A program made the position numbers and the translations under genes. A stretch of DNA of 64,000 bases, from IMG/VR virus record IMGVR_UViG_3300045988_090963; one strand, 5' to 3'. Source of the stretch: a virus. Positions 8,895 through 13,454 of this stretch are shown piece after piece (the first letter of the stretch is position 1; each line of letters opens with the position of its first letter). A model generated the notes under the pieces. That model ran no database searches, had not been told where the DNA came from, and was given only the letters and a program-made list of their open reading frames with translations.

Positions 8895-9431
8895 ATGTAT
8901 AGACTTCTTGTGATTGTAGATGCGCAGAATGATTTTATTACTGGCTCTCTGGGATCTAAGACAGCGAATGCCGCGGTTCCTAATATCGTTGATCTAATTA
9001 AACGATTCTGTTGGGAGGAAATTATTTGTACCATGGATACCCATGACAATGATTACTTTGATACTTTGGAAGGAAAAAGACTTCCCATTAAACATTGTAT
9101 CAAAGCAAGTGTGGGCTGGTGTATGGATTCCAGAATTGTTGTTGCGTTGAATAACAAATTTAACTATTATGAAAAAGATACCTTCGGTAGTACTGATATG
9201 GTCAATGAAGTATACGATTCTCTAAAAATGAAGAATCCAGAGGAAGTAGAAATTCATATCTGTGGATTTTGTACCGATATTTGCGTTATGGCTAATGCAG
9301 TTATGCTTCGTGCGGCGATGCCAAATACTAGAATTATCGTCCATTCTAGCGCGTGTGCAGGAGTAACTCCAGAATCGCATGAAGCAGCGCTAACTATTTT
9401 CAAAGCCCAGCAGATTGATGTGGAGGATTAA
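8895..9431 (+). CDS. pncA: nicotinamidase / isochorismatase family (PncA-like)
   Basis: VDAQNDF motif, catalytic Cys region CGFCTDICV. Confidence 0.65.
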   Translation: MYRLLVIVDAQNDFITGSLGSKTANAAVPNIVDLIKRFCWEEIICTMDTHDNDYFDTLEGKRLPIKHCIKASVGWCMDSRIVVALNNKFNYYEKDTFGSTDMVNEVYDSLKMKNPEEVEIHICGFCTDICVMANAVMLRAAMPNTRIIVHSSACAGVTPESHEAALTIFKAQQIDVED

Positions 9432-9435
9432 AAAA

Positions 9436-10248
9436 ATGATTAGTCTAATTAATACACGCAGTCATTGGACAGACGTAATTGAACAAAATCATTTTCCAGA
9501 TGGTACGCTGCACATTAACATGCCTCCCAACTACTTCGATTATGATACGATTGTTTGGGAGTACGAGAATGATGCAGAATTATTTACTCTCATTTGTGTT
9601 AAGGGACATTTCGAAGATTTCCCTGTAAACCTAGATATGCCATATATTCCTCATGCAAGGATGGATCGAGTTCAAGAACTTGAAGATGTATTTACCCTAA
9701 AATACTTCTGTCAAGTAATTAATAGCCTTCATTTTAATAAAGTTATTGTGCGTGATGCTCATTCTAATGTATCGTTAGCTCTACTTGATAGAGTTATTGA
9801 TCTTAGTCCAGTTGGAGAAATCAAAGAGGCTATTAAGAGAACTGAGGAATATGAAGGAGAAATTCCTATCCTATTTTTCCCAGATGAAGGAGCTATGAAG
9901 AGATATTCTGCTCCACCCATTAATTTTCCTTACGCTTTTGGAATTAAGAAAAGGGATTGGTCTACTGGAAAAATTCTTGGTTTGCAGTTAATGAATGAGG
10001 AAATCGTTAAAGAGAGAAATGTCTTAATTGTAGACGATATTTGTTCTCGCGGTGGAACTTTTTATCACGCAGCAAACGCCCTTAAAGAAGCTGGCGCAAA
10101 GAATATTTATCTGTATGTAACTCATGCAGAGCATACCATGATTGAGGGCGATATGTATAATCAAGATATTGTGAAGAAAATCTTCACTTCTGATAGCATC
10201 TTCAAGACAGAGTGGGATATTAGAGGAAAGGTAGAGATTGTAAGATGA
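9436..10248 (+). CDS. ribose-phosphate pyrophosphokinase family (Prs-like; possibly ADPR-PP synthetase)
   Basis: FPDGT..HI (cf. FSDGE) and VLIVDDICSRGGTFYHAANALKEAGAKNIY (cf. Prs LIVDDMIDTAGT..A.ALKERGA). Confidence 0.6.
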   Translation: MISLINTRSHWTDVIEQNHFPDGTLHINMPPNYFDYDTIVWEYENDAELFTLICVKGHFEDFPVNLDMPYIPHARMDRVQELEDVFTLKYFCQVINSLHFNKVIVRDAHSNVSLALLDRVIDLSPVGEIKEAIKRTEEYEGEIPILFFPDEGAMKRYSAPPINFPYAFGIKKRDWSTGKILGLQLMNEEIVKERNVLIVDDICSRGGTFYHAANALKEAGAKNIYLYVTHAEHTMIEGDMYNQDIVKKIFTSDSIFKTEWDIRGKVEIVR

Positions 10249-10694
10249 CTATTGAGAAACTTCAAGAGTTAAAGATTATGGCTCTTAAAAATGGAAATAC
10301 AAATACAAAGAGGGTACTTTCTGACATGATTGATGCGTGTCAGAAAGCAGCCATTACTCCAAAAGGAAGAGTTGAATTAACTGAGCAGCTAGTTGATGAA
10401 ACCCTTATCAAATACCAAAAGACAGTACAAGAAATGATTGATACCTGTCCTGCTAGTTATCCTGAAAAATTACATCAGTATCAAGAGGATATGAGGGTCG
10501 TAAAGATGTGTGCCCCTCAACTTATTACTGATAAGGTAGAAATTGAAACAAAAGTAAGAGAGATCGCTGGAACCGCAGGTATTGATCTCCTCAAAGCAAA
10601 CCGTGGTGTGCTTATGAAGTCTGTTTCTATGGAGCTTAAAGGTAAGGCAGATATGAAGATTGTAAGTGCTGTTGTTGGAGGGTTGTTAAAGTGA
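10245..10694 (+). CDS. GatB/YqeY-domain protein
   Basis: C-terminal GKADMKIVSAVVGGLL matches the YqeY signature GKADGK.VS..VK..L. Confidence 0.5.
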   Translation: MTIEKLQELKIMALKNGNTNTKRVLSDMIDACQKAAITPKGRVELTEQLVDETLIKYQKTVQEMIDTCPASYPEKLHQYQEDMRVVKMCAPQLITDKVEIETKVREIAGTAGIDLLKANRGVLMKSVSMELKGKADMKIVSAVVGGLLK

Positions 10695-11061: not shown

Positions 11062-11092
11062 AAAGCCCTCATAAAGAGGGTTTTTTATTTTT
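11062..11092 (+). terminator. rho-independent terminator (GCCCTC..GAGGGC followed by a T-run)
   Basis: Hairpin plus T-run; TGATATAAT promoter follows at 11104. Confidence 0.65.
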
Positions 11093-11142
11093 ATAAAAAT
11101 ATATGATATAATATATTTAAGAAATAAGGAAAGGAAGATTTT

Positions 11143-12732
11143 ATGAGTTTCTTTGATGTAGCTCCAATGTTTGCCGCTGACTATTACAAAGTTGGTCATG
11201 CTATTAAGATGCAGCCGAAGTCTGCTTCTATGGTTTATTCTACTTGGACAGCTCGCAGTTATAAGCATCATCCAAATTGCCCTAAGACAGTGGTCTTTGG
11301 TCATCAATATACCATCCAGAAACTACTTGAATTTTGGCAGACAGAGTTCTTTGATCAGTCAGTTGAGCTTCTTGAACAGGAGTGGAATCATGTAATTAAA
11401 AGCACTTTCCATCCTGATTATGCGGATTTTACCAAGTTTAAAGAATTGCATAAACTTGGTTATTTACCTATTTCTATCATGGGAGTTCCAGAGGGTACGC
11501 TTCTTCCCGTCGGGATTCCAGATCATGTAATTTTTTCTAATCATCAAAATTTTGCGTGGCTTCCGCAATTTATCGAAGATCAGTGGAGCGCTAATAACTG
11601 GCTCCCCTCGACTTCTGCCACTACCGCTTTTTATCGCCGCAAGTTGATTGAGCCTTATGTCAAGACTAGTTGCGACGATATGTCTGCGCTTCCGCATATG
11701 TGCGGAGACTTTTCTCTGCGCGGGCATACAAGCCTTGAAGCGGGTTATATTTCAGGTGCTGCCCATGCTCTTTCTTTTGATAGAACTGCAACCATTGGTT
11801 CTAACCTTCTCCTTGAAAAATACTATGGAGCAGATCTTGAGAATAATCCTCCCATGATGGGAACTCCTTCTCTTGAGCACTCTGTTGTTGAACAAGGTGT
11901 AGCTTGGATGAAGCAGAAGATTACTAATGGAGATTTAACTGAAACTGAGCGTTATCTTTTCTCTAAGGCCGCTTTTGATAATTGGGATATTAACCTTATT
12001 GCAGAAATGCTTTTTATTAATTATCTTTGCACAGAAGTGCAACCTACAGGAACTATGACCTATGTATCTGATACATATGATTATTGGGGTATTGTATCTA
12101 AGGTTCTTCCTATGTTGCACGATGTTATTGCAGCAAGAGATGGATGTTTCTCCGTTCGACCTGATAGCGGAGATCCTGTAAAGATTATCTGCGGCGACCC
12201 AGATGCTATACCCGGTTCTCCTGAGTTTATAGGAACTTTAAATCTTCTAAAAGAAATTTTTGGTGGTGAATTGAATACTAAAGGATATTTTATTCTTCCT
12301 TCTTATATTCGTATGATTTATGGAGATGCCATTACTCCAGAGATTACTGAAAAAGTTTGCTCTTGGTGCGTTAGAAATAATATCTCAGTATCCAATCTAT
12401 GTTTTGGAATTGGAGCTTATACTTATCAGTATGTAACTCGTGATACTAGAGGCTATGCTATTAAAGCTACAAATTGTATCCTCGACAATGATGAAATTCA
12501 GATTTATAAAATGCCTAAAACCGACCCTGGGAAAAAGTCTCCTCGTGGATGTGTTGCAATTTTTAAAGAGGAGAATGGCGATTATTCTTTAGTAGAAAAT
12601 CTTACTCTTGAAGAATCCATTGGATATAAGAACAATGTAATGAAATTTAAAGTCAAGAATGGAAGTTTCTGTACGGAGAGCGTAGAGACTATCGAAACTA
12701 TTAAAGAGAGATTGATGGGAGAAGTTCTATGA
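11143..12732 (+). CDS. nicotinamide/nicotinate phosphoribosyltransferase family (NAMPT/NadV-like; possibly Namat)
   Basis: N-terminal ADYYKVGHAIKMQPKSASMVYSTWTARS aligns with NAMPT [26 protein letters not shown]. Confidence 0.6.
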   Translation: MSFFDVAPMFAADYYKVGHAIKMQPKSASMVYSTWTARSYKHHPNCPKTVVFGHQYTIQKLLEFWQTEFFDQSVELLEQEWNHVIKSTFHPDYADFTKFKELHKLGYLPISIMGVPEGTLLPVGIPDHVIFSNHQNFAWLPQFIEDQWSANNWLPSTSATTAFYRRKLIEPYVKTSCDDMSALPHMCGDFSLRGHTSLEAGYISGAAHALSFDRTATIGSNLLLEKYYGADLENNPPMMGTPSLEHSVVEQGVAWMKQKITNGDLTETERYLFSKAAFDNWDINLIAEMLFINYLCTEVQPTGTMTYVSDTYDYWGIVSKVLPMLHDVIAARDGCFSVRPDSGDPVKIICGDPDAIPGSPEFIGTLNLLKEIFGGELNTKGYFILPSYIRMIYGDAITPEITEKVCSWCVRNNISVSNLCFGIGAYTYQYVTRDTRGYAIKATNCILDNDEIQIYKMPKTDPGKKSPRGCVAIFKEENGDYSLVENLTLEESIGYKNNVMKFKVKNGSFCTESVETIETIKERLMGEVL

Positions 12733-13454
12733 CTAATACGGTTACTAAAATTATAGATTGGATTAAAGAGTATTTCATAAAAAACGGGCCGGAGTGTAAA
12801 GCTATTATCGGGATTTCTGGCGGCAAAGATTCTACAGTGGCTGCGGCTCTTCTTTGTAAGGCTCTTGGCCCGAATCGAGTAATTGCCGTACAAATGCCAC
12901 AGGGATTCCAATATGATATTGATGTTTCTAATGAGGTAATTGATTACCTCGAAATTACAGAGCATTACAACATCAATATTGGTTCAGCTTGTCAGGAGAT
13001 TTTCTTGTCTTTGCCCAATGATATTAGAATTCAGCCGCAAGTTACAAGTAATGTTCCAGCAAGAGTAAGAATGAATATCCTTTATGCAATCGCCGCGAGC
13101 CGTCATGGAAGAGTTGTGAATACTTGCAATAGAAGTGAAGACTATGTAGGCTATTCTACTAAATTTGGAGATGCAGCAGGAGATTTTTCTATTCTCTCTA
13201 ATTATACTGCCACGGAAGTTAAAGAAATTGGTATTGAGCTTGGATTGCCAAAGAACTTCATTGAAAAGCCTCCAGAGGATGGATTAAGCGGTTTAACAGA
13301 TGAGGAAAATTTAGGATTTTCTTATGATGTCCTAGATAATTTCCTACTTAATGGTATTACTCCTCCATATGAGATATATAAAAACATTGAACAAAGACAT
13401 AAGAGAAATTTACATAAGATTTCCCCTATGCCAACTTGTCCATTCTTTTCTTAA
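12729..13454 (+). CDS. nadE: NH3-dependent NAD+ synthetase (NadE), PP-loop ATP pyrophosphatase
   Basis: SGGKDS PP-loop motif. Confidence 0.65.
   Translation: MTNTVTKIIDWIKEYFIKNGPECKAIIGISGGKDSTVAAALLCKALGPNRVIAVQMPQGFQYDIDVSNEVIDYLEITEHYNINIGSACQEIFLSLPNDIRIQPQVTSNVPARVRMNILYAIAASRHGRVVNTCNRSEDYVGYSTKFGDAAGDFSILSNYTATEVKEIGIELGLPKNFIEKPPEDGLSGLTDEENLGFSYDVLDNFLLNGITPPYEIYKNIEQRHKRNLHKISPMPTCPFFS

Follow-up and report, generated by a model that had tools for sequence, protein, structure and literature searches.

The 64,000-nucleotide (nt) stretch of the viral record IMGVR_UViG_3300045988_090963 (IMG/VR), analysed here at its full length and hereinafter called the window, carries between positions 8895 and 13454 a block filled by six tightly spaced open reading frames (ORFs) on the + strand. 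Four of them encode enzymes related to nicotinamide adenine dinucleotide (NAD+): (i) a nicotinamidase (PncA); (ii) a pyrophosphokinase of the Prs family, i.e., that of phosphoribosyl pyrophosphate (PRPP) synthetase; (iii) a transferase of the NAMPT family; and (iv) an NAD+ synthetase (NadE). A first-pass annotation, made from the DNA letters alone, had named these same genes as PncA-like, Prs-like, NAMPT-like and NadE, and both the coordinates and the family scores agree with it. In our opinion, this block probably constitutes a self-contained, deamidated form of the phage NAD+ reconstitution pathway NARP1, in which PncA, an Adps-like kinase, a Namat-like transferase of an altered type and NadE would together rebuild NAD+ via deamido-NAD (NaAD). 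The altered transferases are here called Ala-type, from the Ala that they carry where canonical, Asp-type Namats have Asp. The six ORFs are as follows (aa, amino acids):

8895-9431, + strand: nicotinamidase (PncA), 178 aa, isochorismatase fold (PF00857, 3e-20)
9415-10248, + strand: Adps-like Prs-family pyrophosphokinase, 277 aa as listed (phrog_619, 7e-67)
10245-10694, + strand: YqeY/GatB-C-like passenger, 149 aa (PF09424, 5e-8)
10691-11059, + strand: small hydrophobic membrane protein, passenger, 122 aa
11143-12732, + strand: Ala-type Namat-like transferase of the NAMPT family, 529 aa (PF04095, 1e-23; phrog_448, 9e-132)
12729-13454, + strand: NH3-dependent NAD+ synthetase (NadE), 241 aa (TIGR00552; PF02540, 7e-46)

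When the transferase is compared with the PDB by phmmer, 9w5x/9w5w (8e-95, 321 bits) and 9ke8 (262 bits) score far above human NAMPT (1e-39, about 139 bits) and 7yqo (130 bits). The residue numbering of 9w5x/9w5w agrees with that of the SpbetaL1 Namat (PMC12774641), and the transferase aligns with this solved structure without gaps throughout the pocket. Namats are defined by their grip on the adenine of ADP-ribose pyrophosphate (ADPR-PP), for which two features are responsible: (i) a helix with aromatic residues in the motif GSX-Phi-X-Phi-X-Phi-TRD; and (ii) a longer beta1-beta2 loop with Arg, Lys or Tyr (PMC12774641). In the window transferase, the helix (SCH) reads GAYTYQYVTRD (424-434), with Y426 and Y430 at the aromatic positions, and the loop (SCL) carries K41-H42, at a position occupied by R (8) or K (3) in the Ala-type representatives. 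Only in the subclade of this phage is the second position of the helix motif Ala and not Ser (Ser391 in SpbetaL1, Ala425 here). In general terms, the residues of the adenine clamp are as frequent in Ala-type proteins as in canonical Namats, while the NadV outgroups (Aeromonas phage 25, Vibrio phage D480) have GGGLLQ and a shorter loop. A NadV or NAMPT identity for the transferase is rejected in view of the clamp and of the difference between the PDB scores. As regards length, the transferases of this phage subclade (525-535 aa) are about 40 residues longer than those of Clostridium Ala-type loci and canonical Namats (about 489 aa), owing to an insertion at residues about 250-289, after the catalytic His region.

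The Prs-family protein encoded at 9415-10248 has its probable start at ATG 9436, since the orthologue consensus begins there. The TIGR01251 model (Prs) gives it 87.5 bits, under the 113-bit cut-off, and every NCBIfam Prs model scores it below cut-off. A hidden Markov model (HMM) of Adps from Asp-type (canonical NARP1) loci only assigns 222 bits to the window protein versus 147 bits to E. coli Prs. Furthermore, the window protein has the Adps-clade residues P79, [PA]115-H-S117, C210 and F216, which differ from those of Prs, and the housekeeping Prs motifs DLHA..QIQGFF and DT(A/G)GT read D-A-H-S..V..AL and S-R-G-G-T in it. In view of the sub-cut-off Prs models, the divergent motifs and the Adps HMM score, a housekeeping Prs is rejected. 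A sequence search of the PDB retrieved no Adps structure. The gene lies on the same strand as the transferase gene, 895 nt upstream of it and with two small genes between; in this respect, 97% of the Adps clade is encoded beside a Namat homologue (Osterman et al., bioRxiv 10.1101/2024.02.11.579819). Judging by these sequence features, the Prs-like/NAMPT-like pair is of the NARP1 (Adps/Namat) type and not a housekeeping Prs/NadV pair. The first-pass annotation had recognised the NARP1 architecture in it, and the PDB ranking, the adenine clamp and the Adps HMM bear this out; with Prs models below cut-off and a Namat clamp present, the two proteins fall outside housekeeping Prs and NadV.

These features bear directly on the main alternative to a deamidated NARP1, namely, a boost of the Preiss-Handler route. 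According to this explanation, which we deem unlikely, the Prs-like protein would make PRPP, the Ala-type enzyme would use it to form nicotinate mononucleotide (NaMN), the NadD of the host would convert NaMN into NaAD and the phage NadE would finish NAD+, with PncA as the supplier of nicotinate. NadD is an essential enzyme, present in every host. Besides, the change in the pocket described below would suit nicotinate with either ribosyl donor, Namat is able to use PRPP in vitro, and gut jumbo phages with pncB-nadD-nadE clusters are known (PMC11662467). Nevertheless, the adenine clamp, which true NadV lacks and from which an enzyme using PRPP would have nothing to gain, is retained, and the Prs-like protein scores as an Adps and not as a Prs. 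Two further points against this route, the absence of NadD and the nature of the neighbouring genes, emerge from the related loci (see below).

The pocket of the transferase was compared, together with those of its dereplicated relatives, at all 20 contacts listed for the crystal structure of SpbetaL1 Namat with NAD+ (PMC12774641). Sixteen of the 20 contacts are identical in the window protein. The ring-stacking Phe/Tyr, both Arg, the ribose/phosphate contacts, the AMP contacts, the clamp and the catalytic His are retained. Phe392 to Tyr426 and Arg40 to Lys41 are changes that canonical Namats show too. The sole changes of a contact throughout the clade are Asp215 to Ala216 and Ala242 to Ser243, both of which touch the nicotinamide. 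Thus, five of the seven residues that form the nicotinamide pocket (Phe189, Arg192, Asp215, Ala242, Arg306, Asp13' and Tyr15') are kept, and Asp215 and Ala242 are changed. An unbiased scan of alignment columns, with 11 Ala-type and 63 Asp-type representatives, found four columns that separate both groups with zero overlap: 188 (Gly versus His), 216 (Ala versus Asp), 241 (Thr versus Val/Ile) and 243 (Ser versus Ala), which correspond to H191, D219, V242 and A244 of human NAMPT. The best 120 database homologues (40% to 99% identity) all combine the Ala state with the Namat clamp (120/120). Because Asp215 and Ala242 are replaced throughout the Ala-type clade, the transferase is, on present evidence, not a standard, nicotinamide-specific Namat but an enzyme with an apparently rebuilt amide pocket.

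The same pocket can be interpreted in another way: the block might encode an ordinary NARP1, in which nicotinamide and ADPR-PP give NAD+ directly, PncA and NadE are auxiliary to host salvage and Ser243/Thr241 compensate for the lost Asp. The contacts other than those to the amide are preserved, as is the catalytic His, and the Ser hydroxyl could hydrogen-bond the amide. However, replacement of this Asp impairs the use of nicotinamide: D215A in SpbetaL1 Namat lowers the formation of NAD+ from nicotinamide about 8-fold, and human NAMPT D219A is recorded as losing activity, while D219S is recorded as switching substrate preference (PMC4919578, Table 2). In addition, PncA would consume the pathway's own substrate. 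Taking also into account the gene context, which this explanation leaves without a reason (see below), we regard an ordinary NARP1 as improbable.

The two remaining NAD-related enzymes look functional as judged from their conserved motifs and profile matches. With regard to PncA, 12 orthologues show no variation in the catalytic triad (D9/K94/C130) or in the metal ligands (D48/H50/H67), and both the triad and the Asp-His-His metal site align with those of P. horikoshii PncA. A profile of the 12 orthologues matches solved nicotinamidases/pyrazinamidases from archaea, bacteria and yeast (1ilw at 6e-22, 3s2s, 2h0r, 3o90, 3pl1 and 2wt9); the NCBIfam equivalog of E. coli type, NF008623, is not reached (18 bits versus 174). 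Among deposited phages, PncA homologues were found only in phAss-1 and in six uncultured faecal contigs.

With regard to NadE, the protein reaches 155.8 bits with TIGR00552 (cut-off 63.65) and has a single synthetase domain, without a glutaminase domain, with the SGGKDS P-loop at residues 30-35. Its start codon overlaps the stop codon of the transferase (ATGA). All its PDB matches are NH3-dependent NAD synthetases, including 3fiu (1e-31) and 2e18 (5e-30). The top match, 3fiu, is what we take to be the F. tularensis homologue, an NMN synthetase, which brings in another explanation: that the phage NadE converts NaMN into nicotinamide mononucleotide (NMN), as in Francisella, and that an unseen NMN adenylyltransferase (NMNAT) finishes NAD+. 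The Francisella NadE homologue is indeed an NMN synthetase, but short, archaeal-type NadE proteins are true NAD synthetases (PMC3376133). Moreover, only 5 bits separate 3fiu from 2e18, a genuine NAD synthetase, and an NMNAT was found neither in the window nor in the related loci, all of which makes such a route highly improbable.

The search for an NMNAT or Nudix enzyme covered the 64-kb window and 164 related loci with their flanks. When window ORFs of at least 100 aa were scanned with Pfam, no CTP_transf_like or NUDIX family was detected; the families detected in the ORFs outside the block were those of replication, nucleotide metabolism and RNA repair. Likewise, phmmer searches with NadD and NadR of E. 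coli gave no match among all window ORFs or in the 164 loci. The first-pass annotation had already noticed that no NMN/NaMN adenylyltransferase was visible, and within the window this holds by both Pfam and phmmer.

The 164 loci (71 Ala-type and 93 Asp-type), which were drawn from IMG/VR, GTDB genomes and GenBank phages together with flanks of 8 kb, differ markedly in gene context. The neighbours of the transferase gene in each group are the following:

Ala-type loci (n=71): PncA in 67, NadE in 53, Adps in 68
Asp-type loci (n=93): PncA in 0, NadE in 0, Adps in 88

All of the phage/viral Ala-type loci (24/24) have PncA, NadE and Adps together. The contrast between Ala-type and Asp-type loci gives Fisher p values of 1e-41 for PncA and 7e-28 for NadE, calculated with loci that are not phylogenetically independent, and a repeated search for PncA and NadE with family HMMs (E up to 0.01) yielded identical counts. 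The exceptions among Ala-type loci are, for the most part, contig ends or bacteria with NadE presumably elsewhere. The more divergent Ala-type lineages, when checked one by one, have the same gene set: in one of them, the transferase and NadE are separated by a gene with a NADAR domain, and another contig has a PnuC transporter and a NadR-kinase-like gene (NARP3-like) upstream of the four-gene set. Since the pocket state co-occurs strictly with both enzymes across phages and Clostridia, PncA and NadE would be integral steps of a deamidated route and not bystanders. Their presence beside the pair had been called unusual in the first-pass annotation, which is justified by their absence from all 93 Asp-type loci. 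An ordinary NARP1 offers no reason for the lack of PncA and NadE in those loci, nor for their nearly constant presence beside the Ala-type transferase.

The bacterial relatives point in the same direction. In 34 Clostridium loci (among L087-L163), the gene order is NrtR, Adps-like, PncA and Ala-type transferase, often followed by NadE, and a microbial-type PARG lies downstream in one Clostridium Ala-type locus. Examples of ADP-ribose-linked neighbours are found at L119:5709-6614, L089:9506-10339, L172:7675-8499 and L174:533-2342. NrtR represses its targets until ADP-ribose releases it from DNA (PMC2330246). Actually, Rodionov et al. described NrtR-controlled prs-nadV operons, puzzling at the time, and in C. 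acetobutylicum an operon of the order nrtR-pncA-pncB-nadD-nadE (PMC2330246, Table 1). In the Ala-type operon, the Adps-like and Namat-like genes stand where pncB and nadD, which lead from nicotinate to NaAD, stand in C. acetobutylicum. If ADPR-PP and nicotinate were converted into NaAD directly, this replacement of pncB and nadD would therefore be expected. As for the Preiss-Handler boost, NadD is encoded in none of the 71 Ala-type loci, even though these carry the first and last steps, and the neighbours (NrtR, PARG, NADAR) are linked to ADP-ribose (ADPR). With the clamp kept and a Prs-like protein that scores as an Adps, the classical route from PRPP to NaMN and then to NadE, also contemplated in the first-pass annotation, loses much of its appeal.

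The deamidated NARP1 proposed here would operate as follows. A host NADase (that of Thoeris, DSR, SIR2-HerA, SEFIR and the like) cuts NAD+ into ADPR and nicotinamide. Then, (i) PncA would convert nicotinamide into nicotinate and NH3; (ii) the Adps-like kinase would convert ADPR and ATP into ADPR-PP and AMP; (iii) the Ala-type Namat-like enzyme would join ADPR-PP and nicotinate to give NaAD and pyrophosphate (PPi); and (iv) NadE would produce NAD+ from NaAD, ATP and NH3. The ammonia released in the first step would offset that used in the fourth. The route would cost two ATP versus one, and would require no host enzyme, in particular no NMN/NaMN adenylyltransferase. Three ideas may be put forward for such a costlier route: (i) the two additional irreversible steps would pull the reversible transferase reaction forward; (ii) in hosts with an active nicotinamidase, a standard Namat might find little nicotinamide to use; or (iii) the module might simply have been captured from Clostridia.

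Several observations weigh against this proposal. The co-occurrence was counted in loci that are not independent of one another in phylogenetic terms and could go back to one ancestral operon. In a neighbour-joining tree rooted on phage NadV, the Ala-type proteins form two deep groups, paraphyletic and not a single clade; this is probably due to long-branch attraction, and we favour a single origin of the Ala state because the four derived residues are shared and the NadV outgroups have the His/Asp state. The substrate specificity of the Ala-type enzymes is deduced from few residues and from gene context, and Namat keeps some of the above-mentioned activity with PRPP in vitro. Within the kinases, Ala-type Adps proteins have DDIC-S-K/R-GGT versus DDIC-D-G-GGT in canonical Adps, and H-C-E-D/N-T-I-F versus H-G-I-F-S-K-G; because these two motifs depart from the canonical ones, the substrate of Ala-type Adps might differ from plain ADPR. 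The top PDB match of NadE is 3fiu, with 113 bits versus 108 for 2e18. Finally, the extra ATP is a cost with no evident benefit.

Regarding transcription, the first-pass annotation spoke of one early operon: the block as such stands, but two tandem units (PncA-Adps-YqeY-TM, TM being the small membrane protein, and then Namat-NadE) are predicted instead of a single operon, because a hairpin and a -10-like motif occur at 11061-11117 and again after NadE. Both features are matches to consensus only:

11061-11117, + strand: terminator-like hairpin (11061-11085) followed by an extended -10-like motif, ATATGATATAATAT
13452-13491, + strand: terminator-like hairpin (13452-13477) followed by a -10-like motif, TGATATAAT, 3' of NadE

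The hairpin at 13452-13477 and its -10-like motif are the predicted end of the NAD block. In the intergenic cassette, which recurs at 8818-8867, 11061-11117 and 13452-13491, a GC-containing hairpin precedes an AT-rich stretch that includes TATGATATAATAT (extended -10-like); this recurrence suggests many short early units, each with its own promoter. Start and stop codons overlap at the Adps/YqeY, YqeY/TM and Namat/NadE junctions. The YqeY-like gene is not a core part of the NAD set, because it is found in the closest relatives only (7 loci); the gene of the small membrane protein, which had no family match in Pfam, NCBIfam or PHROG scans, is confined to 6 close relatives.

Among 50,697 deposited phage records, no near-identical DNA was found for the block. 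The closest deposited phage is phAss-1, with 68% amino-acid identity on the transferase; it too has nicotinamidase, Prs-like and NAMPT-like genes, and its NadE lies 400 nt further downstream. This uncultured phage of the human gut belongs to the 'code 15' clade, which recodes TAG, and its authors inferred a Clostridia host for it (PMC10607447). IMG/VR does contain near-identical contigs, the longest of them of 146 kb, and a 149-kb contig binned with an Oscillospiraceae metagenome-assembled genome is 91% identical. The phage of the window appears to recode TAG as well, since the reading of TAG as Gln yields plausible proteins (lysin-like, GIY-YIG-like, RecJ/DHH-like and Ig-repeat structural proteins). 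The frames concerned are long, free of TAA/TGA and have 6-13 in-frame TAG each; they lie at 20352-21803, 28999-29949, 37019-38770, 50278-50754 and 57122-58969 on the + strand, and at 53843-54361, 54846-55550 and 55833-56327 on the - strand. The NAD genes have no in-frame TAG, and a scan of the window for tRNA genes, suppressors included, was negative.

Around the NAD block lie the genes of an RNA-repair-like set (3866-8347 and 13535-16270, + strand) that includes an RlaP-like nucleotidyltransferase, three metallophosphoesterases, an RNase T-type exonuclease, a Thg1-like tRNA-His guanylyltransferase and an AAA_33/PNK-like kinase, as well as a possible ligase at 7376-8347 with no Pfam match. Altogether, the NAD block and this set look like a counter-defence island. 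Elsewhere in the window, a protein of 813 aa (396-2837, + strand) matches domains of the eukaryotic Major Vault Protein (MVP_shoulder 6e-17, Vault_3 6e-8, Vault repeat 2e-4), which is unusual in a phage, and a reverse transcriptase domain (RVT_1, 6e-17) occurs among the replication genes at 38-63 kb. We infer the anti-defence role of the NAD block by analogy with NARP1, as we infer all the substrate specificities; such a role would fit the place of the block among RNA-repair and other counter-defence-like genes.

As a whole, a deamidated variant of NARP1 appears well supported by the comparative evidence and is, in biochemical terms, a proposal. We lean towards considering that its central reaction (nicotinate + ADPR-PP to NaAD + PPi) is new to the NAD+ literature, that it is independent of an adenylyltransferase, and that it would serve gut phages against NAD+-depleting immunity and Clostridia to recycle ADP-ribose under NrtR. 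Nicotinamidase, NadE, nicotinate and NaAD are not tied to NARP1 in the preprints on NARP1, NARP1-AP and RyDEP, in the papers on Namat structure and NARP3, or in the surveys of NAD in gut jumbo phages and of NAD-ADPr in viruses, and targeted literature searches found no link of NARP1 or Namat to nicotinamidase, NadE, nicotinate or deamido-NAD. If the proposal were true, (i) one new enzymatic reaction, and with it a third route to NaAD, would be added to bacterial NAD+ metabolism; (ii) phage NAD+ reconstitution would have diversified not only on the ADPR side but also on the pyridine side; (iii) a widespread NrtR-controlled Clostridium operon, now annotated as Prs, nicotinamidase, nicotinate phosphoribosyltransferase and NadE, would be accounted for; and (iv) the His-Asp-Val-Ala versus Gly-Ala-Thr-Ser signature could be used to annotate both types and to engineer the specificity of Namat/NAMPT. 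So far, the four-gene system occurs only in uncultured gut phages and Clostridia, and it points to NAD+-centred conflicts among gut anaerobes beyond any cultured model.

Among known systems, NARP1 of SpbetaL1, Bas63 and Fado (bioRxiv 10.1101/2024.02.11.579819; PMC12774641) shares with the window (i) the Prs-family/NAMPT-family gene pair; (ii) the adenine clamp (SCH and SCL), the catalytic His, the ribose, phosphate and AMP contacts, and the Adps-like profile; and, presumably, (iii) the rebuilding of NAD+ from ADPR after NADase attack. But the window transferase differs from it by Asp215 to Ala, Ala242 to Ser, His to Gly and Val/Ile to Thr; the Ala-type enzymes are accompanied by PncA (67/71) and, in phages, by NadE (24/24); the predicted product is NaAD and not NAD+, at the expense of two ATP; the Ala-type Adps has motif changes of its own; and this phage has two unrelated genes between Adps and Namat.

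NARP1-AP, with the Macro-domain phosphatase Adpp (10.64898/2026.01.28.702374), and NARP1 with RyDEP (10.64898/2026.05.28.727677) similarly use accessory enzymes to feed other breakdown products into the two-gene core. While those accessories work on the ADPR side (ADPR-1P, cyclic ADPR) with an unaltered Namat, the accessories of the window would work on the pyridine side, with an altered transferase. The Pfam search, made with window ORFs of at least 100 aa, detected no Macro or RyR domain, and NARP1-AP was rejected for want of a Macro domain in the window. NARP2 (NadV and NMNAT, e.g., in KVP40-type phages) has in common a phage-encoded restoration of NAD+ and an enzyme of the NAMPT family, but true NadV has GGGLLQ in place of the aromatic clamp and His/Asp in the pocket; this system was rejected since the window has no NMNAT and the clamp is of the wrong type. 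NARP3 (PnuC and NadR, PMC13464706), another phage-encoded restoration of NAD+, was rejected on account of the lack of PnuC and NadR in the window. Lastly, the NrtR-controlled Preiss-Handler operons of bacteria share with the block the first enzyme, PncA, and the last one, NadE, and the Clostridium relatives also share the same ADP-ribose-responsive regulator; the difference lies between both ends, where PncB and NadD are replaced by Adps-like and Ala-type Namat-like proteins and, hence, the ribosyl-adenylate would come from ADPR instead of PRPP and ATP.

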